Notes: generated by a model not told the origin, from the sequence alone. A DNA stretch of 64,000 nucleotides from Thermoproteota archaeon (GCA_049700215.1 JBNAVT010000002.1:41981-105980), one strand, 5' to 3'; positions 10,752-63,596 are shown, counted from the stretch's first letter. Numbers and translations: made by a program.

Positions 10752-11174
10752 ATGGGGGCTGGAGGAAAACACGGTAATTTTAAGGTTGCGGTCTACTGCA
10801 CGGTCCGTGACGTGAATGAAATGGCTGATTCAACCTGGCTGGAAAACAGTTTCAAGGTTTTGAGCAGGAGCATTCCTTTAGACAAGGTTTATCTTGAGAC
10901 CTTCGGCAGCGGTGCCTTGGCGGATAGAGGCTTAATGCAGAAGGTTAAGTCTTTTTTCAAAGATAAGGGTGTCGAGGTGTCCGGGGGAATAGCCACCAAT
11001 GGTCCACGCGGCCAATCTCTCTGCTACTCGAAGCCCGGCGACAGAGAAATGCTTGAAAACGTTGTCAAGTATACTGCTGAATTGTTCGATGAGATTATCC
11101 TGGATGACTGGCTCTTCACAAGCTGCAAGTGCGAAGCATGCGCGCGCGCTAAAGCTGGACCGAGTACCGTTTGA
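10752..11174 (+). CDS. Hypothetical protein, possibly the first fragment of a disrupted larger gene
   Basis: 140-aa ORF ending ...CKCEACARAKAGPSTV*. The next two ORFs continue without an intergenic gap in other frames. Confidence 0.35.
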   Translation: MGAGGKHGNFKVAVYCTVRDVNEMADSTWLENSFKVLSRSIPLDKVYLETFGSGALADRGLMQKVKSFFKDKGVEVSGGIATNGPRGQSLCYSKPGDREMLENVVKYTAELFDEIILDDWLFTSCKCEACARAKAGPSTV

Positions 11175-11485
11175 AGACTATGGAGGATGTTGCGCAAAAC
11201 ATCATCTTTAAAACAGCCAAGGAGGTTAACCCCAAGGTTAGGCTGATAATAAAATATCCAAACTGGTATGAGCATTACCAGTTTCTCGGCTACAGTCTCG
11301 ATTTCGAATCAAGAGTCTTCGACATGGTTTACACGGGCACTGAGACGAGAGACTCAGAGTATACTCATCAACACCTTCAGGAGTATCAGAGCTACGCTAT
11401 AATGAGGTTTCTGGAGAACGTTAAGCCGGGTTTCAACGGCGGCGGCTGGATTGATCCTTTTGCCAAGAGGCGCGCGCGCTCTTGA
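11171..11485 (+). CDS. Hypothetical protein, middle fragment of a possible disrupted gene
   Basis: 104 aa, protein-like sequence (...IKYPNWYEHYQFLGYSLDFESRVFDMVYTG...). Frame differs from the flanking ORFs. Confidence 0.3.
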   Translation: MKTMEDVAQNIIFKTAKEVNPKVRLIIKYPNWYEHYQFLGYSLDFESRVFDMVYTGTETRDSEYTHQHLQEYQSYAIMRFLENVKPGFNGGGWIDPFAKRRARS

Positions 11486-12500
11486 CCGTTACGCGGAGCA
11501 GATAAGGCTGACGCTCTTCGCTAAAGCCAGGGAGGTTACGCTCTTCTGCTACAGCGCCCTGCTCGAGTCCTTTAAGCAAGATGGGGCAAGAATTCCTATA
11601 AGCATCCTTGCACCAGTAGTCGGAACCATCTTCGAGGAGATGGATTTTCTTGTCGGGAAACTCGGCAACCCTTGTGGTGTTAAAAGCTATAAGCCGTTCA
11701 ACTCGTCCGGCGAGGATTTTCTTCAAAACTACATAGGCATGCTAGGAATTCCTGTCGAGATGACTCCGAGTTTCCCCGAGGCCAGTGAAACCGTGTTCCT
11801 AACCGAGTGTGCCAAGTTTGACGGCGGGATAATGGGGAAAATCAAGAAGCATCTTGTTAAAGGCGGGGACGTTATTATTACATCCGGTTTTCTGAGGGCG
11901 ATGCAGGATGAAGTGGTTAGAGAGCTGGCTGAGGTCAAATACACCGGTGGAAAAATACTTGTCAAAGACTTCTCACTAGGCTTTTTCCTTTTCGAAGATG
12001 TTTACCACTCGGATGTGGAAATACTTATCCCCCATATCAAATACCCGACTAACGATGTTTGGGAGGTCATTACGTGTTTAAGCAGGGGCAACGGATACCC
12101 GTTGCTGATGCTCATGAACTACGGGAGGGGAACACTATACCTACTTACAATACCGGATAACTTTAACGACCTATACCATCTCCCACCCACTGTTTTGAAC
12201 AGTATTAGAAGAATCTTCTCGAAGAATTTGAAAATAAGCCTTGAAGGACCAAGCAGGGTCTGCATTTTCCTTTACGACAACGATGCTTTAATCCTTCATT
12301 CATTCCTGCCTCATCCCTCTAGAGTCAGCGTTGTGGTTAAGGGCAAGGGTTTAAAGATGCGTGAACTCTCCTCGGGCGAGATACTTAACGGCTTCGAGAG
12401 GAAATGGGGGATGGTTTTGAAAGAAGTATTGAAACCGTGTTCCCGGTTTACTTGGCGTCGTCTTCCTACAGTGCTTTCAGGGTTGAATAATTATCTTTGA
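11451..12500 (+). CDS. Hypothetical protein, C-terminal fragment of a possible disrupted gene
   Basis: 349 aa, in the same frame as 10752..11174. (GC)5 tracts sit at ~11140-11149 and ~11472-11481, near both ORF junctions. Confidence 0.4.
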   Translation: MILLPRGARALDRYAEQIRLTLFAKAREVTLFCYSALLESFKQDGARIPISILAPVVGTIFEEMDFLVGKLGNPCGVKSYKPFNSSGEDFLQNYIGMLGIPVEMTPSFPEASETVFLTECAKFDGGIMGKIKKHLVKGGDVIITSGFLRAMQDEVVRELAEVKYTGGKILVKDFSLGFFLFEDVYHSDVEILIPHIKYPTNDVWEVITCLSRGNGYPLLMLMNYGRGTLYLLTIPDNFNDLYHLPPTVLNSIRRIFSKNLKISLEGPSRVCIFLYDNDALILHSFLPHPSRVSVVVKGKGLKMRELSSGEILNGFERKWGMVLKEVLKPCSRFTWRRLPTVLSGLNNYL

Positions 12501-12536
12501 AAAGTTTAAACCAGTTTAAAACTGGAGTGTTTCAGG

Positions 12537-13139
12537 ATGAACGCGTTTAAGCAGAATGAGCGGTTGGGCAGGGGGGTTAACATACTGGGTTACGACCCGG
12601 TTTGGAAAAACAGGTCTATGGCAAGAATGAGGAGCGAGCATTTTAGGCTGATAGGGAGCGTCGGCTTCAACAGCGTACGCATCGCTCTCCACCCTTTTCG
12701 CGACGGGGCTATGGGTTGGGGAAACCGGCTTTCGGAAGAGTGGCTTGAAACATTGGAATGGGCGGTTGAACAGGCTCTTGGAAACTGGCTTATGCCGATA
12801 ATCGATTTCCACGAGTTTATAATCATGGGGAGGGATCCGTCTGGAAACAGGGATAGGCTTCTCGCCTTCTGGGATCAGATTGGTAGACTCTACAGTAATT
12901 ATCCTGACGGAGTGGTTTTCGAGCTTCTAAACGAGCCCAATAGGGAGCTTACGCCTGAGCTTTGGAACCGTCTTCTCGCCGAGATCCTTAAAACAGTGCG
13001 CAAGACTAACCCGGATAGGACTGTGATAATAGGCCCAGCCGTCTGGAACAGCATAACCGGCCTTGATAAGCTGGTTCTCCCGGAGGAAGACAGGAATATA
13101 ATTGTAGCGCGCACTCACGTTTTGGTCAAACGCCTTTAA
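12537..13139 (+). pseudogene. GH5 endoglucanase N-terminal fragment (truncated paralogue of 8029..9495)
   Basis: 200 aa. Contains FELLNEPNRELTPELW but ends at ...NIIVARTHVLVKRL*, where the intact paralogue continues NIIVTFHFYTPFEF...GEFG. No frame carries the nucleophile region. The divergence point lies on the tagcgcgcac motif at ~13104-13113. Confidence 0.65.
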
Positions 13140-13302
13140 AAATTTGGAGTAGCAACCTTGAGGAAATTATTGCTCTAAGCTTGTATGAGCACCCTCTACT
13201 TAAGGTTAAGCGCGCGCTATTTGTATTGAATGTTAATCATCTCGTCTGTATATCTAGACGAAACTTAAATTCTTGCCTCGGAAAAGGGTTTTGGGCAGGT
13301 TG

Positions 13303-15039: not shown

Positions 15040-15519
15040 CGTTTTTCCTTAAGCCTATATATTTGTTTCCCTATGCTTTCTGCAAGCGTGTTGTTCAACG
15101 TTTTCACGCGTGCCCGAACCGTTTCCACTTAAGGCTGGTTTCACGTTTTCCCCGCCTATGGTTCTCCGATTTAAATTACTTATATCATTGAGTAGCAGTA
15201 ATTCGACTTAGCGCGCTGTATTCGAGCAAAAAAGTATTGGTAGAGCAGGCGAGCCTGATCCAGAACGGACTTTGATCCTTTCTATTTCGTGAAAGAACAT
15301 TACAGGAAACAGAGGTTGGTTGAGCGAAGACGCTGAAGCCTCCAGACAAAGAATGTTTACGGGATGGGTTGCACATCTCCATTTTTACTCCTGGCCGCGG
15401 GCGGGTTACTTACGTAGAGTATGTGAAGCCTTAACAATAATGGGAATCAGGAAAAGCGTAGCGCGCACTATAATCTTTGCAGGATTAAAATATTTGTTCT
15501 CTAAAGGGGTTTTATGGGG

Positions 15520-16036: not shown

Positions 16037-16111
16037 AAATACTTTACTGTGAAAGCTTTATGCTAAACTTTTGATTGCCAGAACTGGTGGAAATAAAGGT
16101 TAAAAAGGAGA

Positions 16112-17302: not shown

Positions 17303-17308
17303 CTCCGG

Positions 17309-18822: not shown

Positions 18823-19224
18823 ATGAGCACGATAATGTTTAGAGAGGTGGATTCGCTCGGCAGGGAGTATGAGGAGGCTCTTAAGAATGTTGAAACCGGT
18901 AAGAACGTTAAGACCGGCGGGGCTCTCGTCACTTTTCCGGATAAGGAGAGGAAAATCTGCGAGCTTTCAGCAACCTACATGGTGAAGCTGGGAAGGTTCT
19001 CCAAGGAGCAGAGAGTAGTAGTTACTCTCACGTTTAACAAGGATAGTAATGGGGTTTACGTGGCGAACATGGATGACTCTGTGTTCCACGTGGTTCAGGA
19101 GGAGAAGGGAGGCCTGAAAGAGGTTTGGAGTGGAAGGCTTAGAGAAGCGATGGATAAACTGGGGGATGTTGCCAGGATTCACGTAAACGTGATGTCAAGC
19201 CTCTCCAGCAAGTCTTCGTCCTGA
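18823..19224 (+). CDS. Hypothetical protein
   Basis: 133-aa ORF with TATA ggctttataaaca at ~18752. No recognisable family. Confidence 0.35.
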   Translation: MSTIMFREVDSLGREYEEALKNVETGKNVKTGGALVTFPDKERKICELSATYMVKLGRFSKEQRVVVTLTFNKDSNGVYVANMDDSVFHVVQEEKGGLKEVWSGRLREAMDKLGDVARIHVNVMSSLSSKSSS

Positions 19225-19470
19225 TTAGCGCGCGAATACTAAATATTTGGCGCATAATAAGCCGCCTCCTACGTTTAGTCTTGAGACGTAGCTCGAGGAT
19301 TAGATTAGCGCGCGTCTTTTTGGTACTCCCCTGTTCTGATAGATATTTCCTAGATTATCAATTCCTAATAAGTGCACGCGCTGTTGTTAAAGCCAAAAAC
19401 TAGCTTTGTGGCTTAATTCTTGGGCTTTGCCACAATCATGTTAAGATTTTCCACTAGCGCGCGCGCTAAA

Positions 19471-19490
19471 GCAAAAAACTTATATATTAC
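19471..19490 (+). promoter_or_regulatory. BRE/TATA promoter of the ABC substrate-binding-protein operon
   Basis: gcaaaaaacttatatatt lies 30-50 nt upstream of the start at 19524. Four GCGCGC-core palindromes sit in the 300 bp upstream. Confidence 0.5.
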
Positions 19491-19523
19491 TTCCGTAGGG
19501 TCTAAAAAAGTGAGCGATATAAA

Positions 19524-22154
19524 ATGAACATATGCTCCATGGATTTTGGAAAATATGTTGCAGTATTGACCCTTCTAGCAACAGTAGCGCTTACCCAGCT
19601 GACGATGCCTGCTTTCGCTCAGCAAGTGCCAAACGGTGGTTGGCTGGATGAAATCGTTTTCTTCAAAGAAAGCGATGCAAGCAAGATGTTCGACATGATA
19701 GAGAAGGGTGAGGCGCATGAATGGCAGTGGACGGCCCCTGTAACTCTTATTGACAGGATAAAGGCTTCTGATAAGGTTGGATATGTTTCCTCATCAGGAA
19801 TCTTTTATGTGCTCGATGTGAATCCGTGTCCGTTTAGAAGCGGCTTTAACCCGTTTGTAAACGCGAAAATGAGAGAAGCGTTAAACTACATCGTGGATAG
19901 AGAGTATCTTGCTTACACCATTATGAAGGGTGCTGGGAGGCCGAAGTATACCATACTTGTCTCCAGTTTTCCGGATTATGGTCAGGTTATAGATGTTGCT
20001 AAAATAATTGAAAGCAAGTACAGGTTTAATCTCGATGCCGCTAAGGAGATAATCTACAAGGAAATGGCTGATATGGGGGCTGTTCTCAAAGATGGGAAAT
20101 GGTACTATGAAAACAAGGTTGTCACTATAAAATTCATCATAAGAATTGAAGATGCGAGGAGAGATATTGGTGATTTCATAGCTTCACAGCTTGAAAAGCT
20201 TGGTTTCATCGTAGACAGGCAGTATAAACCAGCATCGGAGGCCTTCCCCATTAGGTATGCTACTGACGCGCGCGATGGATTATGGCACCTCTACACCGGC
20301 GGGTATGAAGCAGGCTTCGACCAATCCGGAGACTTTTGGGGCTTCTTTGCAGGTGCCTACATAGAAACGGGTGCCGTCCATGACCCAGTCTTTTCAGAAA
20401 TTGCTAGAAGGCTTTCCACGGCTGACTATACTTCTTTAGAGGAGAAAATCAGCCTAATGAAGAAAGCATTGTTAATGTCGGTGGAAGACTCAACCTACGT
20501 CGGATTGGCTGACAGGCTTTCAATATTCATGGTTTCAAAGGATGTGGTGGCAGCATACCATCTTAGCGCCGGACCTTGGAGAATGCCGTGGAGCAGAACT
20601 GTTAGGCTTAAGGACAGAGTTGGCGGAACGATAAAAGTGGGTGAACAGGATCTTCTCGTAGAGGAGATGAATCCTGTTGCACTCGGCGGATGGGTCTGGG
20701 ATATGGCTGTCTACATGCCGACTCAAGACTACGGATTCATCGAGAATCCTTACACGGTTGCATTAATCCCATTGAGAGTTAAGGAGTACAGTGTTGAAGT
20801 GACTCAAGGAATCGCGATTAAACAAACGCCGGAAGTTAAAACGGTTGACCAAGTAAGAGTTCCTTCTGACGCTATTGCCGCATGGGATGCTGTAAACAAG
20901 AAGTATGTCAATGTCGGGGAGAACAAGTATGCTAAAGCCAAGGTGACTTTAGTGTACGACTCTCCCCTCGGTAAATATCACGATGGTACGGACATAACTT
21001 TAGCAGACTTCATGTTCTGGTTCGCCCTTTCCTTTGAAAGGACAAGTAGTTCCAGCAAGATTTACGACGAGTCTGCTGTACCCGGATTCATAGCCACAAT
21101 GCGGCAATTCATAGGTTTCAAAGTTATTCGTAGCAACCCGGTGACTGTGGAAGTCTATGTTAACATGACTCACGTCGAACCGACTCGTCTCGCTGACTGG
21201 GCTGCTCAACGCTTCACGCTATCGGGATTTCCGTACTTCCCGTGGCACGACCTTGCTGTTGCAATTCTCGCTAGACAGGATGGAAAGCTTGGTTTCAGCG
21301 CTCTTGAAGCTCGGTCTCTTGGATGTGAAAGAGTCAATTTCATGTATGGTCCAAGCATGGCAATACTAAACGAGTATCTTGATAAAGCGATAAAGGAAAA
21401 ATACGTGCCTGAATGGATAAAGGATTATGTTACTCCAGATGAAGCAGTGGCAAGATACCAGAAGCTTAAAGAGTTCTACAACAAATATAAGCACTTCTGG
21501 GTTGGTTGCGGGCCGTACTATTTATACTCCACTGATCCTGTGGGGAAGGTTGCGGTGTTAAAGGCTTTCAGAGAATACGTGTATAAGGCTGACAAATTTG
21601 ATTGGCTGCTAAAGTCATCTACTCCTGAAGCCTCTTTAAAGGTTCCTGAAAAGATTGTTCCAGGCATTGAGGCAAATATTACCGTAACCATCAGTTCAAT
21701 GGGAGAACCTTATCCAAGAAGCAATATAGAGAAGGTCATGTATCTCATAACAGATCCAGCAGGCAACATGCTTTTAAGCGGTATTGCGAGAGAAACTGCT
21801 ACCGAAGGACTTTACCAAATAAGGCTTAACGGGACTGAAACTTCAAAACTGCCTCCTGGCACGCATACGGTAACCGTATATGCGTTCAGCAATATTGTCG
21901 CAGTCCCGGGAAGTGGAGAAGCAACTATCGCAGTTATACCGCCTGCAAGCTACATAACGCTGGAGCTGAATAGGGTTAGGCAAGAGATGGAGGCCAGGCT
22001 GTCCGCAATAGAAGCCTTGAACACTCAGGTCTCCAATTTATCGTCTGAAGTAAACTCGTTAAAGAGTACTTTAAACATGGCTGTAGGGATAGGGGTTGTT
22101 GCGATAATAATTGCCGTAGTGGCAGTAGTCCTTAGTATTAGAAAGAAGCGATGA
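19524..22154 (+). CDS. ABC transporter substrate-binding protein, family 5 (oligopeptide/cello-oligosaccharide type), with C-terminal coiled coil and membrane anchor
   Basis: 876 aa. N-terminal signal peptide (VAVLTLLATVALTQLTMPAFA), family-5 SBP body, and a C-terminal segment ...LNTQVSNLSSEVNSLKSTLNMAVGIGVVAIIIAVVAVVLSIRKKR (coiled coil plus transmembrane anchor, as in archaeal SBPs). Confidence 0.85.
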   Translation: MNICSMDFGKYVAVLTLLATVALTQLTMPAFAQQVPNGGWLDEIVFFKESDASKMFDMIEKGEAHEWQWTAPVTLIDRIKASDKVGYVSSSGIFYVLDVNPCPFRSGFNPFVNAKMREALNYIVDREYLAYTIMKGAGRPKYTILVSSFPDYGQVIDVAKIIESKYRFNLDAAKEIIYKEMADMGAVLKDGKWYYENKVVTIKFIIRIEDARRDIGDFIASQLEKLGFIVDRQYKPASEAFPIRYATDARDGLWHLYTGGYEAGFDQSGDFWGFFAGAYIETGAVHDPVFSEIARRLSTADYTSLEEKISLMKKALLMSVEDSTYVGLADRLSIFMVSKDVVAAYHLSAGPWRMPWSRTVRLKDRVGGTIKVGEQDLLVEEMNPVALGGWVWDMAVYMPTQDYGFIENPYTVALIPLRVKEYSVEVTQGIAIKQTPEVKTVDQVRVPSDAIAAWDAVNKKYVNVGENKYAKAKVTLVYDSPLGKYHDGTDITLADFMFWFALSFERTSSSSKIYDESAVPGFIATMRQFIGFKVIRSNPVTVEVYVNMTHVEPTRLADWAAQRFTLSGFPYFPWHDLAVAILARQDGKLGFSALEARSLGCERVNFMYGPSMAILNEYLDKAIKEKYVPEWIKDYVTPDEAVARYQKLKEFYNKYKHFWVGCGPYYLYSTDPVGKVAVLKAFREYVYKADKFDWLLKSSTPEASLKVPEKIVPGIEANITVTISSMGEPYPRSNIEKVMYLITDPAGNMLLSGIARETATEGLYQIRLNGTETSKLPPGTHTVTVYAFSNIVAVPGSGEATIAVIPPASYITLELNRVRQEMEARLSAIEALNTQVSNLSSEVNSLKSTLNMAVGIGVVAIIIAVVAVVLSIRKKR

Positions 22155-22163
22155 AAAAGCAAG

Positions 22164-24695: not shown

Positions 24696-25697
24696 TTAGA
24701 CTACTCCTTTAGAGTTTTTCTGGCTGTAGAGCCAGCATTTGACTTTATGGAGTTCAGACACCTCTACTTCAGGAGGCTCCTCTCTCCTGCAAACATTCAT
24801 GGCGTGTGGGCACCTCGGGTGAAACCTGCAACCAGGTGGGGGATCAAGAAGACTCGGAGGCTCTCCTGGAGGTGTTTTCCTACGTCTTTTCACGTTTAAA
24901 GGATCCAAGTCTGGAATGGCTTCGAACAAGGCTTTTGTGTAAGGATGTAACGGTTCTCTTAAAATCGTCTGTGTATCTGCTTTTTCAACAATATGGCCTC
25001 CATACATTATGAATATTTTATCTGAAAAATATCTGGTGGTGGACAAGTCATGAGTAATATATATAAAGCTTATTTTCTTGTTCTCCTGAAGCTCTCTCAG
25101 TAAAGTCAATATCTCAATCCTTACAGATGCGTCCAGCATAGAAACAGGTTCATCTGCGACGATTAATTCGGGCTGGAGTATGAGAGCTCTTGCAATAGCT
25201 ACTCTCTGCGCTTGGCCTCCGCTTATCATATGGGGATACTTTGGCAAGAAATCTTCAGCAGGTAAAAGCCTGACGTTTTCAAGCGCTTTATAAACCATCT
25301 CACCCCTACTTCTTTCATCACTGATCTTATGGATTTTCAAGGGTTCTTCAAGTATTTCTCGTATCGTTAAGAAGTATGGGAGGCTTCCGAATGGGTCTTG
25401 CTGAATCAACTGTGCCGCCCTCCTGTACCACATAAGGTTTTTTGCATCCAAGTGAGTTATGTCTTTACCGTTAAATACTAAAGTCCCCTGTGTCGGCTTG
25501 TAAAGTCTGAGTATAGTTTTGCCTAAAGTAGTTTTTCCGCTTCCAGATTCGCCTACAAGCGATACTGCCTCCCCCCTACTGAGTTTGAAGTTGACCCCGT
25601 CAACAGCCTTCACTGCCAGGGATTTGGAGAATAAGCCACGTTTGATTTCAAAGTATTTCCGTAGATCTATCACTTTTAACAGGGCATCGTCCATCAA
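24696..25697 (-). CDS. ABC transporter ATP-binding protein (OppF/DppF-like) with C-terminal oligopeptide-type extension
   Basis: 333 aa. Walker A GESGSGKTT, signature [15 protein letters not shown], Walker B LIVADEP. The C-terminal 56 aa are identical to the neighbouring ATPase. Confidence 0.9.
   Translation of the reverse strand: MMDDALLKVIDLRKYFEIKRGLFSKSLAVKAVDGVNFKLSRGEAVSLVGESGSGKTTLGKTILRLYKPTQGTLVFNGKDITHLDAKNLMWYRRAAQLIQQDPFGSLPYFLTIREILEEPLKIHKISDERSRGEMVYKALENVRLLPAEDFLPKYPHMISGGQAQRVAIARALILQPELIVADEPVSMLDASVRIEILTLLRELQENKKISFIYITHDLSTTRYFSDKIFIMYGGHIVEKADTQTILREPLHPYTKALFEAIPDLDPLNVKRRRKTPPGEPPSLLDPPPGCRFHPRCPHAMNVCRREEPPEVEVSELHKVKCWLYSQKNSKGVV
24703..24870. repeat. 168-bp exact direct repeat, copy 1, encoding the C-terminus of ATPase 24696..25697
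   Basis: actcctttagagtttttctggctgtagagccagcatttgac...ggaggctctcctgga is identical base-for-base to 25708..25875. Confidence 0.9.
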
Positions 25698-26683
25698 CTA
25701 TCAGCCACTCCTTTAGAGTTTTTCTGGCTGTAGAGCCAGCATTTGACTTTATGGAGTTCAGACACCTCTACTTCAGGAGGCTCCTCTCTCCTGCAAACAT
25801 TCATGGCGTGTGGGCACCTCGGGTGAAACCTGCAACCAGGTGGGGGATCAAGAAGACTCGGAGGCTCTCCTGGAATATGACCGAGCTTCTTGGTGGAGCG
25901 TAATGTAGGTACACTTGCCAAGAGTAATTTAGCATATGGGTGTAGAGGCTCGCTTAGAAAAGCTTCAAGGCTCGTTAACTCTACTATTTTTCCTGCATAC
26001 ATTATGGCGATCCTGTCAGAAAGCTCCGTGCTCAGCGCAATATCGTGCGTAATAAATATGTAGCTGATTTTAAGCTCAGACTTTATATCCTTCAATATGT
26101 TCATTATGTTCGCCTGAGTTATAACATCTAAGGCTGAAGTCGGTTCGTCGAGAATAACTATTTCTGGATGCGTTATCAAAGCCATTGCTATTAAAACCCT
26201 TTGCTGCATGCCTCCACTAAGCTCGAAAGGATACCTGTCTATAAAAGAACTGCTTATTCCGACAAGCGATAGAAGTTCCGATGCTTTTTCAATTGCGTCT
26301 TTTTCAGGAATACCTTTATGGATCATAAGTGGTTCTGCTACCTGTTCCCCTACTTTAAGCAAAGGATTTAAGGAGTCCATCGCTCCCTGAAAAACGATCG
26401 ACACTTTCTTCCATCTGATTTTTTTCTTAAAATCATCATCTCTCAGACTCATAATATCCATACCATCGATAAATATGCTTCCCTCATACTTTGCTATATT
26501 CTTTGGGAGCAACCTCATTAGGGCTCTAGCCAGAGAGCTTTTACCACATCCGGATTCTCCAACTAAAGAAACTGTTTCTCCTTTCCTAAGGTTAAAACTT
26601 ATATCATCTACAGCTTTCACTGTTCCTTTTCTAGTACTATAATATAGATAAAGCCTTTTTACCTCCATTAATGAGTCCAACAT
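25694..26683 (-). CDS. ABC transporter ATP-binding protein (OppD/DppD-like)
   Basis: 329 aa. Walker A GESGCGKSS, signature LSGGMQQRVLIAMAL, Walker B IVILDEP. Overlaps the downstream ATPase gene by 4 nt. Confidence 0.9.
   Translation of the reverse strand: MLDSLMEVKRLYLYYSTRKGTVKAVDDISFNLRKGETVSLVGESGCGKSSLARALMRLLPKNIAKYEGSIFIDGMDIMSLRDDDFKKKIRWKKVSIVFQGAMDSLNPLLKVGEQVAEPLMIHKGIPEKDAIEKASELLSLVGISSSFIDRYPFELSGGMQQRVLIAMALITHPEIVILDEPTSALDVITQANIMNILKDIKSELKISYIFITHDIALSTELSDRIAIMYAGKIVELTSLEAFLSEPLHPYAKLLLASVPTLRSTKKLGHIPGEPPSLLDPPPGCRFHPRCPHAMNVCRREEPPEVEVSELHKVKCWLYSQKNSKGVADS
25708..25875. repeat. 168-bp exact direct repeat, copy 2, encoding the C-terminus of ATPase 25694..26683
   Basis: Identical to 24703..24870. 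Flanking bases differ on both sides. Confidence 0.9.
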
Positions 26684-26735: not shown

Positions 26736-26850
26736 GAAGAGATGTATAAATGCTAAGCTTAATCTGCAATACCGTTTATACGGTTTTGCGATAGACTTAG
26801 TAGTCATGAATGTCGAGAATCCTTGTTTATTTTCTAGACGAGCTAACTTA

Positions 26851-27685
26851 GAGCATGTTTCAAAACCCCTTCTTCCTCCCATTCGCCCGCTTGTAGCATA
26901 TCAGCGCGCACGCCAAGTTCAGGAACGCCTGGTATGTACACTGCAACCTCTCGTACCTGACCTTGAGCCTCCGGTACTGGTTGATCCACGCCTGCGCCCT
27001 CTCCACAGGCCAGAGCTTCCTATACCTCCTCGGCCTCCGCCTCCTGTTCAGCAGGGGGATTATGCCCCTCTTCCTTAGTTCCCTCCTCAGCGGCTCCGAG
27101 TCGTACGCCTTGTCTCCCTTGAGCTTTAGCGGCCTTCCCACTCCATGCCTTATCGGAGGTATCGCGTCGACCAGCCTCAGGGCTACTGTAGAGTCGTGCG
27201 CGTTCGCTCCTGTAACTATTGCAGCGAGAGGGAGCCCCCTCGAGTTGGCTATGACGTGCCTCTTCGTGCCGTTCTTGGCCCTGTCCGTCGGATTGGGGCC
27301 TGTCGAGCGCCCCCTTTTAGAGCCTGCACAGGAGAGCTGTCTATCATCGCAAGCCTCATGCTTGGCTCGGCCCTATCGAGCATCTCCTTCCAGACCCTCT
27401 TCCATATGCCCTTTCGCTGCCATTCTCTAAGCCTCCTCCAGCAGCTAGGTCCGGAACTGTACTCCTTTGGGAGGGCATTCCAGGGGCAGCCGTTTAAGAG
27501 CACGTAGAGTATTCCGAGCATCGCTGTCCTGTTCGGCACAGGTGGCCTGCCGGGTGTTCCAGGGGGCTTCTGCTTCGGAAGCATGGGTTCTATTATCTCC
27601 CAAAGATCGTCCGTCAGAACCTTCTCGGGTCTAGCCATGGGGAGAGGAGGTCAGAAGGCTTGGATAAGGGTTTTGAAACACGCTC
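26851..27685 (-). mobile_element. IS5-family insertion sequence (IS427/IS1031-like), ~835 bp, with imperfect terminal inverted repeats and TTA target duplication
   Basis: Left end gagcatgtttcaaaaccc versus reverse complement of right end gagcgtgtttcaaaaccc (17/18). Flanking TTA at 26848-26850 and 27686-27688. Encodes a two-frame IS5-type transposase. Confidence 0.75.
26860..27638 (-). CDS. IS5-family DDE transposase, orfA/orfB in two frames (programmed -1 frameshift type, or inactivated)
   Basis: orfA 27249..27638 reads LTDDLWEIIEPMLP...NRTAMLGILYVLLNGCPWNALPKEY...CWRRLREWQRKGIWKRVW (DUF4096/IS5 N-terminus). orfB 26860..27141 plus upstream extension reads ...GRPLKLKGDKAYDSEPLRRELRKRGIIPLL (IS5 C-terminal DDE region). 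Confidence 0.75.
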
Positions 27686-27690
27686 TTAGT

Positions 27691-28122
27691 TTAAGTCTGC
27701 ATATAAAACTGCTCTTTAAAAAGCCTTATTTTCTTGAAACACTCTTCCTCCTCGCCGCAGTCTGCAACAAGCTTTTCAAACGGGCAGACATCGTTCTTCA
27801 TCCTGTTTAGGATTTCGGGAACAAGTTTATCATACTCGACGCTTATACTCTTCTCCTTCAAAGCGGCTAAGCCCTTCCTACTTACTACTTCCGCGTACAC
27901 TTCAGCAATATTAGCACGCCGGCAGAGCATTGCTGCTGCTCTGCCAACAACCCTGTCGGCAACAGCAGCCCCTGATAACTCTACACCATGGTTTTCAATA
28001 GCTTCAACAAGCCCCACGACGCCGTATTTCCTAGTCGCATGGATGAAAGCTCCTTGCTTAACTATAACTAGGCTGAAACCACCGTTTTTCAAAATCCTCT
28101 TAGCCGTCTCCAAGCCATTCAT
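27691..28122 (-). CDS. Hypothetical protein (possibly DUF1893-like)
   Basis: 143-aa ORF. ...DRVVGRAAAMLC... segment. The stop lies 5 bp from the IS right end. Family assignment is tentative. Confidence 0.4.
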   Translation of the reverse strand: MNGLETAKRILKNGGFSLVIVKQGAFIHATRKYGVVGLVEAIENHGVELSGAAVADRVVGRAAAMLCRRANIAEVYAEVVSRKGLAALKEKSISVEYDKLVPEILNRMKNDVCPFEKLVADCGEEEECFKKIRLFKEQFYMQT

Positions 28123-52343: not shown

Positions 52344-53198
52344 ATGTGTGCAAGCGTAAGGTACAGGCCTCCTGAGACAGCTGAAATAGGTATTTTCGGG
52401 GGAACCGGCAACTATGATCCTTCATACCTTCAGGACGCTAAACAGTTTAAAGTATACACGCCCTACGGGCCGCCCTCAGACCTTGTAACAGTAGGGTGGG
52501 TTAAAGACAGGAAGGTTGCCTTCCTGCCGAGGCACGGCAGGCACCACACAATACCGCCTTACAGGGTCAACTACAGGGCCAACGTCTGGGCCTTTAAAAC
52601 GCTGGGTGTAACCAGGATAATAAGCCCCGCCGCCGTCGGGAGTCTTCAACCGGAGTTCATAAAGCCCTATGAGTTCGTCGTGGTAGACCAGTTTTTCGAC
52701 AGGACGACGAACAGGAGGAGCCTCTCCTTCTACGAGGGCGGTGTCGTTGGGCACGTCCCCTTCAGCGACCCAGTCTGCCCGGAGCTGAGGAGAATATTCT
52801 TGGACTCAGGTAGGAGGGTGCTTCCCAACGTGAAGATCCACCCAACCCCGGAGGAGGAGGCGGGGGGAAAATCGTTCACATACGTAACCATCGAGGGCCC
52901 GAGGTTCTCAACGAGAGCTGAATCGCTCTTCTACAAGAGCCTAGGGTTCTCAGTCGTAGGTATGACGGCAGTGTCTGAAGCATACTTGGCGAGGGAGGCT
53001 GAGATATGTTTCCTCAGCATCGCGCTCATCACGGACACGGACGTGTACGGTTTAATGCCGGTTACGGCTGAAAGGGTTGCTAAAAGCATGAGGGAGAACG
53101 TTGCGAACGTCAATAGGCTTATCTACGAGACAATCCCCACGATACCGAGGGAGAGGAAGTGTGGCTGTGACACTGTGCTGGATGTTTCACTCTACTGA
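52344..53198 (+). CDS. mtnP: 5'-methylthioadenosine phosphorylase (PNP family)
   Basis: 284 aa. IGIFGGTGNYD, ...FLPRHGRHHTIPP...VNYRANVWAFKTLGV, plus a C-terminal Cys pair typical of hyperthermophile MTAPs. Confidence 0.9.
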   Translation: MCASVRYRPPETAEIGIFGGTGNYDPSYLQDAKQFKVYTPYGPPSDLVTVGWVKDRKVAFLPRHGRHHTIPPYRVNYRANVWAFKTLGVTRIISPAAVGSLQPEFIKPYEFVVVDQFFDRTTNRRSLSFYEGGVVGHVPFSDPVCPELRRIFLDSGRRVLPNVKIHPTPEEEAGGKSFTYVTIEGPRFSTRAESLFYKSLGFSVVGMTAVSEAYLAREAEICFLSIALITDTDVYGLMPVTAERVAKSMRENVANVNRLIYETIPTIPRERKCGCDTVLDVSLY

Positions 53199-54365: not shown

Positions 54366-54367
54366 CG

Positions 54368-54643: not shown

Positions 54644-54764
54644 CTTACTGCTCCCTATATAAAAATTGCTGGCTGAAGAGGGATTAACAGCTTTCCACCG
54701 GAAATCAGCGTCCAGTCTCTCACCAGCCGGGTGCTTATATACAAGCGTGCGCTAGCTGTAAACA

Positions 54765-55525
54765 CTAGTAGGGAAAGCCTTCAGCCATCTCAGCGTCGGA
54801 AAGCTCCTTAAGGAGGATGGCAATTCTCTCCACAGCAGCCTCCAATATCTTCTCCCCCTTCTCACTAGATGATTTCAACGGGTTTCCGAAGCCGGAGTTC
54901 CTGGTTAAAACATGCCAGGGCCTCGTAAACCTGGCCCAAGAATAGGAAGACTCAACCTTGGGTGTATTCACAGTCCCCTCCTCCGCCTCCCACATGTGCA
55001 CGAGACACGGGAACAGGGCAAGCCCAACGCTTGTCTCAAACTCGTCGCCATGCTCCCCGGGCTCCTCTATAATCCTGCTCCTCACATCGTCGACTGTTCT
55101 CCACCAGTCTACTGTGACGATGAAAACCCTGGTCCTGCCGTAGAGGTCTCGCATCAAGGGTGTGAAATCGTTACCGCCATGCCTGTTTAGAATAACTAGT
55201 TTCATCACACAATGGTGCTCGAGCGATTCAACGATATCTCTAACCACCATGTTCAGTGTCGACTGGTCGAGGTTTATCGTCATCGGGAAGCCGAGCGAGT
55301 TCTTGTTGAACCGTAGGGTATGGCGGGGAGCATAACCACTTTAGCACCCATCTCTACAGCCTTTCCGCAAGCCATCTCGGCAACAGCCTTAGCCTGGTAG
55401 AAATCCATTCCATAGGGCAAGTGTAGGCCATGGGGCTCGGTTGAGCCGACAGGTAGAACAGCAACCTCAAACCTAGACTCCTTAACATCCTTAAGCGTAG
55501 ACTCCTGAAGGTTTCACGCAACCAT
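54765..55525 (-). pseudogene. Creatininase-family amidohydrolase (ArfB-like) with in-frame TGA at codon 4 and a -1 frameshift
   Basis: From ATG at ~55523-55525 (TATA aaatttatatg ~30 nt upstream) the sequence reads MVA*NLQESTLKDVKESRFEVAVLPVGSTEPHGLHLPYGMDFYQ...IPYGST, then shifts frame into ...FPMTINLDQ...LNRHGGN...EHGDEFETS (ORF 54765..55283). The indel is near an AA/AAA run at ~55290-55310. Confidence 0.6.
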
Positions 55526-55613
55526 GAGGCTAAGCTTGCTTGTCAAGCATATAAATTTTCATAGGCTAGCTTTGGGGGAAACTTGCTGAAAGCTACATGG
55601 ACTCGCTTAAAAA

Positions 55614-55781: not shown

Positions 55782-55857
55782 CCTGCGCCATCACCTCCGT
55801 CTATTTTTATTATGAACAGTTCGCTTTTAGACTGCTGATACTGTTCATCCCCGTTGA

Positions 55858-56008
55858 ACTTCGGATTCAGGCTGATTGCCCTGGCTATCGCCACCCTTTG
55901 TCTCTGTCCGCCTGACAATTGGTGCGCATACTTATTCATAAAGTACTCTGGGGGAGTTAATGCAACCAGGTGCAGAAGCTCAACCACCTTACTCCTTATT
56001 TCGCTCTC
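55858..56008 (-). pseudogene. Isolated ABC-transporter ATPase fragment (signature-motif region only)
   Basis: Within ORF 55778..56056: [44 protein letters not shown] is the ABC signature (LSGGQ) region. There is no Walker A upstream or Walker B/H-loop downstream in any frame. Confidence 0.5.
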
Positions 56009-56113
56009 ATTCGCACGCGCGTCAATCCGCGTGTAGCGCGTGCACGCTGTATCCATCCTGCTATAGCGGTCTATTTATTTGGCCATAGCCCATCATTAAA
56101 AGGAAAGACGGCT

Positions 56114-57589: not shown

Positions 57590-57639
57590 ACTTATATGCT
57601 TTCTTCATCCCTTTAAACTCGGCATCAAAAGTCAGCGTG

Positions 57640-58820
57640 CTAAACATATTTTTCAGCAGCAGAGGAGGCTATCCTCGCCCACTCCCATAGGCGTTGAGGC
57701 TGGTACCTAACGGTGCTAATGTCCTTCATATGGATCTCCATCACGCAGTTAAACCTCCTCGCCTTCCCAAGCTTCTCCTCCATGTCTCTGCGCACTTCCT
57801 CCGGGTTCCAACTCGACTCAGCCAGCACAGCGGGATTAGGCTTCCAAGCGAATATGAACTCGTCACCCACGTTTTCAACAGCCTTGTCGAATCTATGAAG
57901 GGGCTCATAGAGATCCTGCGCAGCCTGGGTATGTTCCTCCTCAAAACGTCAACCTTATGGTGGAGAGGCTCGCAGCACCCATAGTAGTTCAACCCCCATT
58001 TCTCATACCAATGTTTCTCATGCTTCAACGCAAACTCCTCATGCATAGCAGGAGATACTGCTGAAAAAGCCTGTGCCGCTCCAACCCCCCAAAGCCTCGT
58101 GGGAGAGTCGCGCAGCAATCCGAGTTTCTCATACTGGTCCAGCCGGTGGAGCCAAGCGTCAACCATCCTCTCGGCAAGCCTATGCACATACCCTGGCCTA
58201 CGATGCATATCTATAAGGATCTCCCTAACCCCGGTCAGCATAACGATCTCATCCCAGGGGGCGAACCAGAAGGCGCTGACCCCACGCTTCTCAACAGGCA
58301 GAACCCCGTCGAAAACCTCGCAAAGCATCTCGAAATCCTCCTCAGCCCTTTCTTCGTCGAAAAACACTCTCGGCATCCGGATCTTCTCAACGTCTTCTTC
58401 AGACTTGATTTGAGCATGGTAACGGTGGGAAACTACAGGATTCTTCTCATCAGTCTTAACAATATCCTCCTTAACACGGATGCCTATGTCAGTGTCAGCA
58501 ACATAGTCCTGAAGCGGCTGCTCCACCACAGGCTCCAAACCTAGGCTGCTGCTGAAACGGGGATCATCCACCAGCACCCCCAGTCCATGCCTCCACTTAT
58601 AGATCAAGCGTCTAAGCCTCTCCTCGTATCTCCTGCATAACGGATGCCTAGTCCTCAGCGTTAGCTCATTGTTAACATTCATCTCGTGCCACGGGATCTC
58701 GTAAACATAGACCGGAGGCTTCACCATCTCCAGGTTGATCACCCTTTTTTGCAGCTCAAAATACTCCTCGTTAACGGGTGAGGCTGCGATTTCAGCGCGC
58801 GCTATTCCGCTGCAAACCAT
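57640..58820 (-). pseudogene. Uroporphyrinogen-decarboxylase-family protein (MtaA/MtbA-like methylcobamide methyltransferase type), frameshifted
   Basis: ORF 57741..58820 loses family similarity after ...YYGCCEPLHHKVDVL. The -1 frame continues FEEEHTQAAQDLYEPLHRFDKAVENVGDEFIFAWKPNP... (ORF 57640..57870) to a family-typical C-terminus. One T is missing in a T4 run at ~57925. Confidence 0.65.
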
Positions 58821-59379
58821 CTATCGTCTACAGCCTCCTCTTCTAAGCCCACACCTCCGCTGGAAAAGACTTTAAAAAACATTACTGGGAAAGTCATACA
58901 ATGAGACCCGGTTTTTCAAGCACCGTATGTTCTGGAAACGGACAGGTGTGTTTCTTAATATATTTCACTTCGTAGATGGCGCGGGGGAGGTGGTAGTACG
59001 CGCGCTAATGCATAGTATCCGTGCTAATAGCTATGGCTTTCTCGCCACCTGAGGAAACGTAGAGGCTTCTAGCATATAAAGGGTCATGCACACCTTTAAA
59101 AAAGGTGTGGCGCGCTAAAACGACCAACTATTTCTACAATCATCTCGAGCATCAACCAGTCTCAGGCTGGAGATACGACGTGACTGATCAAGGCATCGGA
59201 AGTTAAAAAAAGGAAAATGATTTGAAACTCAATGAAAGAAACCGAATGATAAGCATTCGTGCCTACAGCATTCTTCACTAAACAAGCTTGATTTATGCAG
59301 ATAGCGAGTCTAGAAGTGACACGGTTAGAATTAGAGTTCAGCCAGCATAGAGGTGAGAATAAGAGCTACCTTATTCTTC

Positions 59380-59900
59380 TAACAGCCTCCTTGATTATCG
59401 GGTCCTCAATCCAGTAGTAGCCCTCCTTCTCCTCCACTATCATCGCGGAGGAAAGAGTTTCCAAGACTATTTAGCGCGCGCGAGGGGTGAAGCAGGGCTC
59501 GGCTCTAAGAACCTGCGCAGGATTCCAACGTATGATCCTGAGAAAACTATCCTTATACCTCTGTATTCATCCCAAACACTTTTCAAAACTTTTAAAAAAT
59601 AATGTGAATACACTTCTTGCATCTCGTCTAAAGCAATAACCCTATCCTTGACGCGTGAAAAAAACGTCTTCCAAGACTCTAGTCCACTTCCTGTACAAAC
59701 TTCAAGTCTAGGCCGATCTCTCCGAGCTTAAACCCGGATTCAGCCGCCAACTTCCTAACCACGTCCTCAATACTCCTAGCACCCATCAGATTTACGTAAA
59801 ACCCATTGTTCTCATTGGAGAAAGTTTTAAGCGGGCTCGTCTTACCCGTCATCCTCTTCCCGACGACAGCAACCCATAAGCGCGCGCTCTAAAAATAAGA
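59380..59900 (-). pseudogene. Remnants of a second Arch_ATPase (PF01637-type) gene
   Basis: Minus-strand fragments: ...VAVVGKRMTGKTSPLKTFSNENNGFYVNLMGARSIEDVVRKLAAESGF (Walker A region, ~59690-59880) and ...EGYYWIEDPIIKEAVRRI (~59380-59450, compare ALYRIADPYMAFWFRYV in the intact paralogue). No continuous ORF. Confidence 0.4.
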
Positions 59901-60048
59901 CGCTTACCAAAGTCACACCTGCTCCTGGAAACATTAGGTGTATTCACTCCAACCAGCCACATAACCAGATAGTGAACTCATACGCAAAGGGTCTTTCTGC
60001 TGGTTAACCGCACCAGTACCAAAAAAGTTTACGCGGGCTAGATGCAAG

Positions 60049-61455: not shown

Positions 61456-61896
61456 GGTTCAACAACTATTTAAATCTGCCTCCTCCCTTATTAAGCGGCG
61501 TATGCCAGCCGAGAAAATTAAAGCTCCTCCACCATCGTCACAAGGAAAGGCTTCAATAAGAGTTTAGCGGACTGTATCCTGCGGGCTTAATAAAGCAGCA
61601 TACGGTATAGCCGATTTAGCCAATTCTATGCAAACCCTGACCCTCCTACCGTTGTTTCTCACCTGCTTGCCGAGCCAGTTGACTATCGAGCTGAGCGGCA
61701 GGTATTTGGCTTCCCAGCAGCCTTTTCTAAGCAGCTTGCTCACCACGTCAGCCTTGATCTCGCGCGCGCCTACCGTCTCTATTCACCCATAGATGCCCGA
61801 GGAACTCTACATAGAAAGGAATACGAGTCGATCCTGCTCAAATGCTTCGGAAGCTCCCCCAAGCTCAGAATAATAGACTTCCTATTCGACAACCCG

Positions 61897-62142
61897 TTGT
61901 TTGACTTCACTAAGAAGGAGATTATAGAAGCACTAGGCATGAGCAAGCAAACATTCTACAAGCATTTTACAGGCATAGAGAAAAACGGTCTAGTCAAAGT
62001 CTCAAGAAGAATAGGCAGGGCTAAACTCTGCAGGATAAACCTGGAGAACCTAATGGTCAAAATGCTAAGAGAAAGCGAAACACAGCTCTCCCTGCAAACA
62101 GCAGAGCAGGAAGCTGAAAAGAAACAAATAGAGGTAAAATAG
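61897..62142 (+). CDS. Small winged-helix DNA-binding protein
   Basis: 81 aa. FTKKEIIEALGMSKQTFYKHFTGIEKNGLVKV gives an HTH and wing. Flanked by (CG)4 tracts at ~61763 and ~62143. Confidence 0.45.
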   Translation: MFDFTKKEIIEALGMSKQTFYKHFTGIEKNGLVKVSRRIGRAKLCRINLENLMVKMLRESETQLSLQTAEQEAEKKQIEVK

Positions 62143-62189
62143 TTTTCGCGCGCGAGAGGAATCTATGCATATTCAAGACCCTATGAGAA

Positions 62190-62561
62190 TCATATTTCTA
62201 CAAGCCCGTCGATAAACCTCAAATACCATCCTACAAACTCCCTCTGAGTCGCCACGTGTATTTCAACTGGTACGGACGGCCCCATCCTTTGCAGGATCCT
62301 CGCCTTTAAACTTGCTGCTCCCTCCTTTACTGCTTCATTAGACACTATGAGAACATCTATATCGCTTGAAGCCGTGTACCTTCCACTCACCACTGATCCG
62401 AAAACGTAGACCTTCGCATCCTTATAATCCTCCTTTACGATATCCTTAACGGAAGCAGCAACCTCCCTATATTTCTCGAGGTACTCTAACGTTTCCCTCC
62501 CCAGCTTCACATATTGCTCAAACATTCCTAATAACCTTCTCGAACTTGTCAGCGAACTCAA
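62190..62561 (-). CDS. Minimal nucleotidyltransferase (MNT) of a HEPN-MNT toxin-antitoxin pair
   Basis: 123 aa. VYVFGSVVSGRYTASSDIDVLIV is the GS...SDxD NTase motif. Confidence 0.8.
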   Translation of the reverse strand: MSSLTSSRRLLGMFEQYVKLGRETLEYLEKYREVAASVKDIVKEDYKDAKVYVFGSVVSGRYTASSDIDVLIVSNEAVKEGAASLKARILQRMGPSVPVEIHVATQREFVGWYLRFIDGLVEI

Positions 62562-62901
62562 TTAGCTGTTTAACCTCCTTCTCCTCATACCTCCTCGGGA
62601 AGTATCTGGAAATTACATAAGCATCCTCAACCTTAGTGAGAATCATTATCTCCGAATCGATTAGCGACGCTAGACCCCTCCCAGACGCAGCATCATCAAG
62701 CACCCTTAACAATCTCACTATCGAGTGTGTCCGGGGATACGTTCCAGTTTTTACGAGAAGCTTGTATTTCAGAATAAGTTGAAAGAATTGCTCGACACTG
62801 AACGCTGCAAGGTCAAATTCTCTCTCCTCAAAAAGCCTCTTAGCATTCCTCAGGAAGGCATACGCTCTTTCCCTGAGAACCTCAGCCTCTTCGAATGACA
62901 A
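62518..62901 (-). CDS. HEPN-domain protein (partner of MNT)
   Basis: 127 aa, helical. R-x-x-H-type motif (YPRTHS). Overlaps the MNT gene by ~44 nt in the classic HEPN-upstream arrangement. Confidence 0.7.
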   Translation of the reverse strand: MSFEEAEVLRERAYAFLRNAKRLFEEREFDLAAFSVEQFFQLILKYKLLVKTGTYPRTHSIVRLLRVLDDAASGRGLASLIDSEIMILTKVEDAYVISRYFPRRYEEKEVKQLIEFADKFEKVIRNV

Positions 62902-63596
62902 TACGTACGCTTTTCAAGAAGCTTAATATTTAAGTCTTAATAGAGGCTTAGAGCCTTTGCAGCGACTATTTCAATATCATTCCCAGTCAACTCGTTACCG
63001 CGAGAATACCACAGCGAAACACCCACTTGAAACCACGAATCATCCCGCTTGCAGAAGCCTTAACATCCCCGGTCAGACGTACACGTCCCTTCCCTCCTCA
63101 CGTGAGCATCACTGGGCTCAACCGTGCCGTCAACCCAATCCGTATGGCTCCACCCCAACCAGCCTGGACACCGAAAACAGGCGTGCCACGCTTATAGCGA
63201 GAATAACAAGATGCCTCCCGGGATTTTTCTCAATTCTGCTTTATAACCCTTGTCAACATTCAGGTTTTTACAAGGAAACACAGGCTAAGGTGCTAGGGCC
63301 TCAATTTTCTACATGCTTCCCTGCATATGGGATCAAGGAATTCGTAATCCTTCACGATGCTCATCATTTCAAGCGCGCGCTACAAGTCGTTTCGAGACGA
63401 CTTCCCAATGTCGAAAAGCAAGTTCCGGTTCGGAACTATTAAGCTTACGGCAACCATCACCAAGCAACTTATCCCCACCCGTCCTCATCCATCACCACCC
63501 GCCCAATTTGAAACACCAAGACCCATCCCGGAAAACCCCTGAAGAACACTGGCTCCAAAACCTTAAATACACCATCAGCCTAACGCCCAGCGAAAG

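Follow-up and report, generated by a model that had tools for sequence, protein, structure and literature searches.

Self-complementary GC tracts at lineage-specific DNA junctions of a hot-spring archaeal lineage: candidate scars of break-and-rejoin events

The 64,000-nucleotide (nt) stretch of Thermoproteota archaeon DNA analysed here (GCA_049700215.1 JBNAVT010000002.1:41981-105980), referred to as 'the window' throughout, carries an excess of short tracts of alternating G and C, such as GCGCGC, many of which stand at the boundaries of broken genes and other rearrangements. Comparison with related genomes shows that these tracts are derived, lineage-specific, coincident with junctions, fixed in phase and flanks, and stable in length. 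The favoured reading, to which a probability of about one half is given, is that they are scars of break-and-rejoin events, in other words a self-complementary GC filler left at joints in a hot-spring archaeal lineage, by a mechanism that is itself inferred. Such scars would persist where they are harmless, namely between genes, in pseudogenes, within islands of toxin–antitoxin and ATPase genes and, occasionally, in frame within genes.

The window has a G+C content of 48.8%, with the dinucleotide CG at 0.79 of expectation. Its proteins find their matches in metagenome-assembled genomes (MAGs) labelled Thermoproteota or Candidatus Brockarchaeota, and the gene content (an MttB-family methyltransferase, sugar ABC transporters and glycoside hydrolases) is in keeping with that group, the source being a Brockarchaeota-like Thermoproteota MAG. 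The comparison set, with relatives at 78-99% nt identity overall, comprises same-population assemblies (L001, L002, L074 and L075; 99.8-100% identity), relatives at 78-92% nt identity (L003, L004, L006-L009 and L048-L056) and Joint Genome Institute (JGI) metagenome loci around close ATPase homologues (L059-L073). A tract is defined as a maximal alternating G/C run; strict tracts measure at least 6 nt, with sub-cuts at ≥7 and ≥8 nt, and runs with one mismatch are counted separately. Enrichment was judged against dinucleotide-preserving shuffles and analytic Markov expectations of order 1-3.

The window contains 22 alternating-GC runs of ≥6 nt, 14 of ≥7 nt and 11 of ≥8 nt, the last against a chance expectation of 0.84, which corresponds to a ~13-fold enrichment over dinucleotide and Markov models. 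The over-representation claimed by an earlier reading of the sequence (the original prediction) is thus confirmed with 11 runs of ≥8 nt, and its chance expectation of about 2 is recomputed as ~1. Among individual 8-mers, GCGCGCGC has 12 overlapping matches versus 0.57 in dinucleotide shuffles (shuffle maximum 3) and CGCGCGCG has 7 versus 0.46, counts that no shuffle comes near; Markov orders 1-3 predict 0.24-0.48 per 8-mer. One-mismatch tracts are enriched as well (56 versus 26 expected). Three runs are 10 nt long (11140-11149, 11470-11479 and 19457-19466), two are 9 nt (59474-59482 and 61761-61769), six are 8 nt (13210-13217, 20267-20274, 58795-58802, 59880-59887, 62147-62154 and 63373-63380), three are 7 nt (19228-19234, 19308-19314 and 58999-59005) and eight are 6 nt (at 13107, 15211, 15461, 18632, 26904, 56016, 57487 and 59110). 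The 13 positions listed originally all carry alternating-GC runs and the list is essentially right, but two of these runs are 7 nt rather than ≥8 nt, some coordinates deviate by as much as 6 nt and the 7-nt run at 58999-59005 was overlooked. Every run of ≥7 nt falls into one of two clusters, at 11.1-20.3 kilobases (kb) and 58.8-63.4 kb; the 38 kb between them (20.3-58.8 kb) hold three 6-mers and no run of ≥7 nt. Apparently intact genes are hit only at 20267 and 58795.

No longer repeat or repeat family was found around the tracts, and scans of the window gave no Rfam match and no tRNA. A CRISPR-like or tandem array was rejected, as spacings are irregular (80-1900 nt) and Tandem Repeats Finder yields nothing relevant. 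Tract lengths in L001, L002, L074 and L075 are unchanged with respect to the window. An assembly artefact was likewise dismissed: different samples, assembled independently, give the same joints, and assemblers work with k-mers far longer than 8-10 nt.

The tracts are missing from the orthologous sites of L003, L004, L006, L049, L051 and L055, and from those of L048 except at 20267. Wherever the ancestral state is readable from relatives the tract is absent from it, and where the tract is present it comes together with an indel or a junction; it is therefore the product of the event and not a pre-existing hotspot. The recombination hotspot proposed originally thus stands as to its strong link with gene-fragment boundaries and recombination, but with the direction reversed. 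Since the tracts are made by the events, some breaking or joining step writes them. The events include clean 7-15-nt insertions, deletions between 66 nt and 2.3 kb in size and segment swaps. Ten of the 22 window tracts lie ≤10 nt from a homology break versus 1.1 expected (2000 permutations, maximum 8), and 14 of the 22 fall in stretches without a homologue, which make up 15% of the sequence compared. Pooling all loci gives 183 unique breakpoints, of which 30 lie ≤15 nt from a strict or one-mismatch tract of their own versus 2.8 expected (500 randomisations, maximum 9), and for loci ≥93% identical a strict or one-mismatch tract is found on either sequence at 18 of 28 breakpoints. Fast-evolving intergenic DNA was discarded as a trivial cause, as many joints are intragenic and the association is strongest at 95-99% identity. 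The parental ends at joints read ..AAGC (59880 and 63373), ..ACGC (58999) and ..TGCG (11140), and no microhomology is seen at 19228, 11470 and 20267. Unknown segments adjacent to tracts were considered as copies from elsewhere in the window or loci, an origin not borne out, the sole match found being to L048.

The inserted sequence has a definite form. In the 41 distinct tracts of ≥7 nt the modal length is 8 and flank conservation ends ~3 nt beyond the tract. Of 57 half-sites, 48 have T after ..GCGC and 31 have TA there, compared with ~9% TA from the window dinucleotide frequencies. Among the 29 distinct tracts of ≥8 nt in tract-rich loci, the first letter of those of even length is G 20 times and C 4 times. 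Because of this G-start phase and of the T/TA flanks, the unit is a fixed (T)A-GCGCGCGC-T(A), also written (T)AGCGCGCGCT(A), and not random (GC)n. Extended flanks are common to two tracts each, namely GCGCGCGCGCTAAAGC (11140 and 19457), GATTAGCGCGCG and GTAGCGCGCACT. As a separate observation, the hexamers TTTCAA/TTGAAA, GTTGAA/TTCAAC, TTAAGC and AGGCTT/AAGCCT occur 2.5-3.4 times more often over the whole window than in a first-order model; TTAAGC or AAGC often adjoins tracts, and the hexamer excess may come from codon usage or a promoter element.

The enrichment is limited to a narrow clade of closest relatives. Runs of ≥8 nt number 11 in the window (0.84 expected), 3 in the 4.8 kb of the same genome beyond it (0.05 expected), 12 in loci with an ATPase ≥83% identical (0.46 expected), 2 in L048 (0.13 expected), 1 in L049 and L055 together (0.41 expected) and none in 90 kb of loci with an ATPase 71-77% identical (0.96 expected). 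In the same genome, the cluster runs on past the window: L074 1-4820, which corresponds to ~64001-68820, has (GC)4-type tracts at 2112, 2555 and 2783, the former two bracketing a small UDG gene and the latter lying 35 nt past the stop of pyruvate phosphate dikinase. In such islands, tracts divide almost every unit (PIN-MazE, AAA_14/DUF4143, PF01637/DUF234 ATPases and UDG), often a few nt from a stop; L073 1-11963 holds 10 tracts of ≥7 nt in 12 kb, and similar islands are found in L060 and L070. Any link between tracts and ATPases in L059-L073 would be biased, as these loci were collected via an ATPase. Viral contigs with TAGCGCGCGCGCTA gave 38 single hits, apparently at chance level, and the Thermofilum pendens plasmid pTPEN01 has no (GC)n excess.

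Relatives bear tracts of their own at their own junctions. In L006, homology restarts at a tract (3502) after a foreign 674-amino-acid (aa) gene; in L004, a tract (12514) marks the end of a truncated GH5 gene ahead of a tandem duplicate; in L048, another (1633) sits where a GH_cat fragment is fused to a GH5 fragment; and in L059, two (11164 and 12587) bracket one gene after loss of MttB. Further own-junction tracts are seen in L051rc (19308), L070 (2869 and 5700), L060 (1731 and 3316) and L053 (591), and yet other joints carry one-mismatch, CpG-decayed copies.

How break-and-rejoin events might leave such a filler can be outlined as follows. A resected 3' end finishing in G/C (parents often end in ..AGC or ..CGC) would anneal through G:C microhomology and be extended by a few GC units, templated by an existing tract or produced by reiterative synthesis; the joint would finally be filled and sealed. 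Use of an existing tract as template would pass on the T/TA flank and account for common extended flanks such as GCGCGCGCGCTAAAGC. Since (GC)n is self-complementary, two tails could pair in any orientation and any two ends would be joinable. The scheme would be a microhomology-mediated end joining (MMEJ), for which the nearest documented activity is that ascribed to the archaeal primase PriSL. In Saccharolobus islandicus, PriSL performs terminal transfer, discontinuous-template polymerization and annealing via 2-4 G:C pairs, and insertions that create G/C at CRISPR-induced breaks belong to the indel-prone repair of these Ku-less Thermoproteota (PMC12019639). However, PriSL insertions are without fixed sequence whereas a defined 6-10-nt palindrome with T/TA flanks is seen here, along with kilobase deletions, segment swaps and restriction to one narrow clade.

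Several points weigh against a plain repair scar. The uniformity of the filler exceeds what untemplated or slippage synthesis would give, and so constant a sequence speaks for a template, an enzyme with sequence specificity or a mobile unit; the same-length patches and the narrow clade distribution suit any of these at least equally. Three of the tract events are same-length patches (6, 8 and 10 nt), odd for break resection. About one-third of the breakpoints between close relatives are without a tract, and the DegT frameshift, the GH94 splits and one L006 deletion are all tract-free. No responsible enzyme has been identified, and the PriSL data come from Saccharolobus, where insertions are mostly 1-2 nt (PMC12019639). 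It is conceivable, although the odds are put on the lower side, that an undescribed joining or selfish system writes the fixed palindrome TAGCGCGCGCTA at each joint; it may be an end-capping enzyme that adds a ..TAGCGC-3' tail to broken DNA, so that any two ends could pair head to head, or it may be a minimal mobile palindrome copied into breaks. Motif uniformity, same-length patches and the narrow clade are also the reasons why two further models, a transposition footprint or mini-palindrome and a recombinase site, are kept as live rivals.

According to the former of these models, rather unlikely on balance, the tract is the footprint or last remnant of a TA-targeting cut-and-paste element, or an ultra-short mobile palindrome itself. 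TA-GCGC/GCGC-TA would be a duplicated TA plus a few terminal bases from each inverted end, local hopping would give clusters and failed post-excision repair would give deletions. The fixed sequence, phase and TA flanks (with a TAGCGCGCGCTA-like consensus), the clustering in two regions, the narrow clade and the clean small insertions all agree with this. However, no donor element is seen, there are no inverted repeats past the tract, the segments between tracts are unrelated, and neither the 35 open reading frames (ORFs) of tract-rich loci nor the scanned ORFs of the window include a transposase or integrase family, save one IS5-family element in the window. Moreover, the targets at 11470, 20267 and 11140, all with both parents known, lack TA, and neither the deletions (66 nt to 2.3 kb) nor the same-length patches look like footprints. 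An ordinary insertion sequence (IS) or miniature inverted-repeat transposable element was rejected in view of the lack of conserved sequence beyond the 2-3-nt flank, of a repeat family and of a transposase in tract-rich loci. Improbable, for its part, is a site of a site-specific recombinase or nuclease, whereby recombination between two previously seeded sites deletes, inverts or inserts the cassette between them, much as in an integron-like array, and leaves one site per joint. A dimeric enzyme would fit the palindromic core, and tracts standing a few nt from stop codons bracket nearly every gene unit of the islands; yet deletion endpoints are without sites at both ends of the ancestral sequence, the offset from the same ATPase stop differs between genomes (161 nt versus 7 nt), no integrase lies nearby in tract-rich loci and the motif, at 8-12 base pairs (bp), is far below any attC.

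A functional cis element (an operator for the winged helix-turn-helix (wHTH) protein, a terminator or insulator, or a selected methylation or restriction site) is very improbable. Three copies do stand upstream of the ABC operon beside the wHTH gene, many others lie just past stops, and the copy at 20267 was kept while its flanks diverged by ~9%, but the motif is missing in relatives with the same regulator, operon and promoter, its copies destroy genes, the core stretch of 20.3-58.8 kb (38 kb) has no copy of ≥7 nt, and a loopless stem is unable to form a terminator hairpin. The transcription-factor site suggested originally is contradicted by L006, L008, L048 and L049, which retain the wHTH gene, the ABC operon and its promoter (transcription factor B recognition element (BRE) and TATA box) while all three upstream tracts are missing there; as orthologous promoters are without the motif, an operator is therefore unlikely. 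The methylase or restriction site suggested alongside it gains no support, since no cognate methyltransferase or restriction enzyme family occurs among the scanned window ORFs, and enrichment of GCGCGC is contrary to the usual avoidance of type II restriction-modification sites. Hardly credible at all are dinucleotide microsatellites that slippage expanded out of GCGC seeds, or a compositional or assembly effect. Some parents do have GC, CGC or GCGC at the joint and one-mismatch tracts are enriched; however, no seed exists at 19228, 11470 and 20267, neither the 20:4 phase bias nor the A/T flanks are expected from slippage, and the 13-fold excess is measured over dinucleotide and Markov models. 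Furthermore, three near-identical, independent assemblies from different samples show identical tract lengths, which largely excludes slippage and phase variation and leaves the slippage invoked by the original prediction without support.

Break-and-rejoin scars also have partial counterparts among known systems. Alternative end joining (synthesis-dependent MMEJ of the polymerase-theta type) combines deletion, short insertion and microhomology, may copy neighbouring or ectopic DNA, and has fillers taken from varied local sequence; the likeness lies in deletion plus insertion, but here the same palindrome appears at most joints. Mammalian interstitial telomeric repeats are a constant repeat written at lineage-specific break-repair sites, sometimes with deletion, from the RNA template of telomerase; these insertions are likewise absent from orthologous loci, whereas the tracts here have no known template of this kind, on a chromosome that is presumably circular. 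Yeast mitochondrial GC clusters are palindromic mobile units of 30-50 bp, located in AT-rich spacers and sometimes in genes, with a short T/A-containing flanking repeat; they vary from one close strain to the next and are linked to endpoints of recombination or deletion. The motif considered here measures 8-12 bp and belongs to another domain of life. Footprints of Tc1/mariner or IS630 elements are alike in the TA-flanked short palindrome and in clusters due to local hopping, but many events here are without a TA target. The attC site of integrons is a 50-150-bp imperfect palindrome with conserved boxes and an integrase, in contrast to an 8-12-bp motif of variable position. In Thermofilum pendens, also a member of the Thermoproteota, an unexplained excess of alternating purine-pyrimidine patterns of Z-DNA type (class RY12) has been reported (Huang and Mrazek 2014, PMC4060949), in another genus and for another pattern class. 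None of these nearest analogues fits in size, constancy and context together, and a literature search found no description of this motif or behaviour.

If the break-and-rejoin reading holds, this lineage apparently tags its own repair and rearrangement events, so that gene losses, their steps and their rates could be read from genomes. Both double-strand-break repair in Ku-less archaea and the assembly of their accessory-gene islands are poorly known. The reading makes an enzymological prediction that can be tested, namely a GC-palindrome filler produced by a primase or polymerase, or else an end-capping or mobile system; a fixed-palindrome system, if real, would be the driver behind the mosaic make-up of the clade's accessory-gene islands. 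In practice, tracts flag pseudogenes and recent junctions in MAGs of this group.

The left cluster begins in a glycoside-hydrolase-like (GH_cat-family) pseudogene (PF28584/PF27250/PF28585; 10752..12500, plus strand), which is split into three ORFs in frames 0, 2 and 0 and whose intact homologues measure 572-582 aa with identity up to 88%. The original prediction had placed two (GC)5 tracts near its ORF junctions; in fact, the tracts themselves are the gene-breaking lesions. The first (11140..11149) shifts the frame from 0 to 2, with L003 reading GCG/TTGAAGCCAAGGGTGATAG/AAAC and the window GCG/CGCGCGCTA/AAGC (19 nt replaced by 9 nt). The second (11470..11479) shifts it from 2 back to 0 with a net gain of 7 nt, AGG/A/CTCTT of L003 and L004 becoming AGG/CGCGCGCG/CTCTT.

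Downstream lies a truncated GH5 copy (12537..13109, plus strand) that retains residues 1-191; as predicted, a tract sits where it diverges, since the copy ends with residue 191 at 13109 (tblastn with the L003 GH5). The remainder of GH5 is missing from the window, and the full gene is found in L049. GCGCGC (13107..13112) is the joint between GH5 residue 191 and the closing 12 codons of a 297-aa gene, the left parent being as in L003 and L049 and the right one (13113-13150) being the 3' end of L048's 297-aa ORF. Because the bases past the tract are the tail of a gene that L048 still has, the event is a ~2.3-kb deletion. The idea that an insertion had split GH5 and had duplicated GTAGCGCGCACT as its target was rejected, as the GH5 C-terminus is not in the window and the bases past 13112 are another gene's tail. 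The (GC)4 tract at 13210..13217 (TTAAGCGCGCGCTA) lies in a ~130-nt insert between convergent genes, a segment without homologue in any relative and at whose site L048 has only ~20 nt. The GCGCGC at 15211..15216 stands at a junction where homology with L006 restarts immediately to the right, the left side being non-homologous: GCGCGC/TGTATTCGAGCAAAAAAG of the window aligns with ATATGTACGAGCATTCAAGC of L006. Another, GCGCGC(AC) at 15461..15466, falls inside a 171-nt segment (block boundaries 15336 and 15507) that stands in place of 60 nt of L006. The 12-mer GTAGCGCGCACT is common to this site and to that of 13107, so that the recurrence noticed originally holds, at 13104 and 15458.

Further right, four tracts accompany the wHTH gene and the ABC operon. 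The original prediction had counted four copies within 300 bp upstream of the operon; three are there, and the fourth (20267) is inside the binding-protein gene. GCGCGCG at 19228..19234, 3 nt past the wHTH stop, is a 7-8-nt insertion: L048 reads GATT/TAAACA, L006 and L049 read GATT/GAAACA and the window reads GATT/AGCGCGCG/AATA. At 19308..19314, GCGCGCG is part of a ~15-nt insertion (TTAGATTAGCGCGCG), with GGGA/C/TCTTTTCC in L006 and AGGA/TTAGATTAGCGCGCG/TCTTTTTGG in the window. The (GC)5 at 19457..19466, 15 nt upstream of the operon's conserved BRE/TATA, is a 10-nt same-length replacement of ACTA/CGGGTTGTTG/TAAGCAGAAAAC (L048) by ACTA/GCGCGCGCGC/TAAAGCAAAAAAC. The (CG)4 at 20267..20274 replaces 6 nt without disturbing the frame of the binding-protein gene, which is intact: GAC CTT AGG GAT of L006 has become GAC GCG CGC GAT (Leu replaced by Ala, Arg kept). 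As the closest relative, L048, carries the same tract despite the ~9% divergence of its flanks, this patch is old and stable.

In the right cluster, homology with L051 stops at 58797, within a tract, while homology with L055 breaks off at 58992, 59472, 59884 and 63374 and is taken up again at 59482; every one of these positions touches a tract. The (GC)4 at 58795..58802, in the 5' part of ORF 57741-58820, marks a ~66-nt deletion: L051 and L055 have ~66 nt between GATTTCA and TATTC, where the window has GCGCGCGC instead. CGCGCGC at 58999..59005 lies at the end of L055 homology, where ~6 kb of L055 are swapped for ~360 nt; the parent ends in ..ACGC and the window goes on with GCGC TAATGC... Inside this ~360-nt replacement segment, which has no homologue in any relative, lies GCGCGC(TAAAAC) (59110..59115).

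The bounds of the ATPase fragments are tracts, in agreement with the original prediction that tracts flank Arch_ATPase remnants. A PF01637 ATPase gene (59361..59884, minus strand; Walker A at ~59840) survives as two collinear fragments, 59361-59472 and 59483-59884, which match L055rc 18964-19075 and 19452-19855 (blastn). The 9-nt tract at 59474..59482 fills a 376-nt internal deletion of this gene, with ..CTATTT as left parent, AGCGCGCGC(G) as filler and AGGGGTGAAGC as right parent, both parents sitting in L055's intact 324-aa ATPase gene. The (GC)4 at 59880..59887 cuts off the 5' end of the ATPase fragment; the parent ends in ..CCCATAAGC and the window continues with GCGCGC TCTAAAAAT.., the latter without homologue. 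Similarly, the (GC)4 at 63373..63380 stands where 82 nt of homology with the 3' end of a different L055 ATPase gene stop; there the parent ends in ..CATTTCAAGC and the window continues with GCGCGC TACAAG... The joints at 59880, 63373 and 58999 share one layout: parent, then GCGC(GC), then unrelated DNA starting with T. Between an intact PF01637/DUF234 ATPase gene and a wHTH fragment, a 9-nt tract (61761..61769) occupies a region without homologue in relatives, and a (CG)4 (62147..62154) lies 4 nt past the wHTH fragment and 35 nt past the nucleotidyltransferase gene of a HEPN-MNT pair. To the left of this cluster, ~1.09 kb of L055 including a mechanosensitive-channel gene is replaced by window 55866-56105, and two one-mismatch tracts, CGCACGCGCG and GCGCGTGC, lie at this junction (56012..56043).

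Other damaged genes and minor features were noted in the window. A creatininase gene is truncated (54765-55283; 172 aa versus 254), with a one-mismatch tract, GCGTGCGCTAG, at 54745 just past the fragment. In window 4638-7046, which has no strict tracts, an Amidohydro_2 gene is truncated (197 aa versus 298) and a DegT aminotransferase gene is split at ~6309-6361. A GH94 (cellobiose phosphorylase-like) gene (29465-32340) consists of three ORFs with tract-free breaks; L006 has no called gene there, and it may be an older pseudogene. The 210-aa ORF at 2200-2832 comprises only the N-terminal domain of an ATP-dependent DNA ligase and is conserved in L003, which is tract-free; it is thus not specific to tract-rich genomes. 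Two differences between L074 and the window lie away from tracts, namely an 8-nt indel at ~52516-52525 inside the PNP_UDP_1 ORF (52344-53198) and a 10-N scaffold gap inside the MttB gene (window 56630), because of which the gene looks split there. The IS5-family element (847 bp, 26845-27691) contains a DUF4096 ORF (27249-27638), and its inverted ends, 24 nt each, are 92% complementary; these ends are unrelated to GC tracts, and one GCGCGC lies inside the element at 26904. As L006 and L049 are without the element, its insertion is recent. Finally, two adjacent ABC ATPase genes, otherwise diverged paralogues, share 168 nt that are 100% identical (24703-24870 and 25707-25874); the pair in relatives is ~81% identical to that of the window, and the shared segment suggests recent gene conversion between the two genes.

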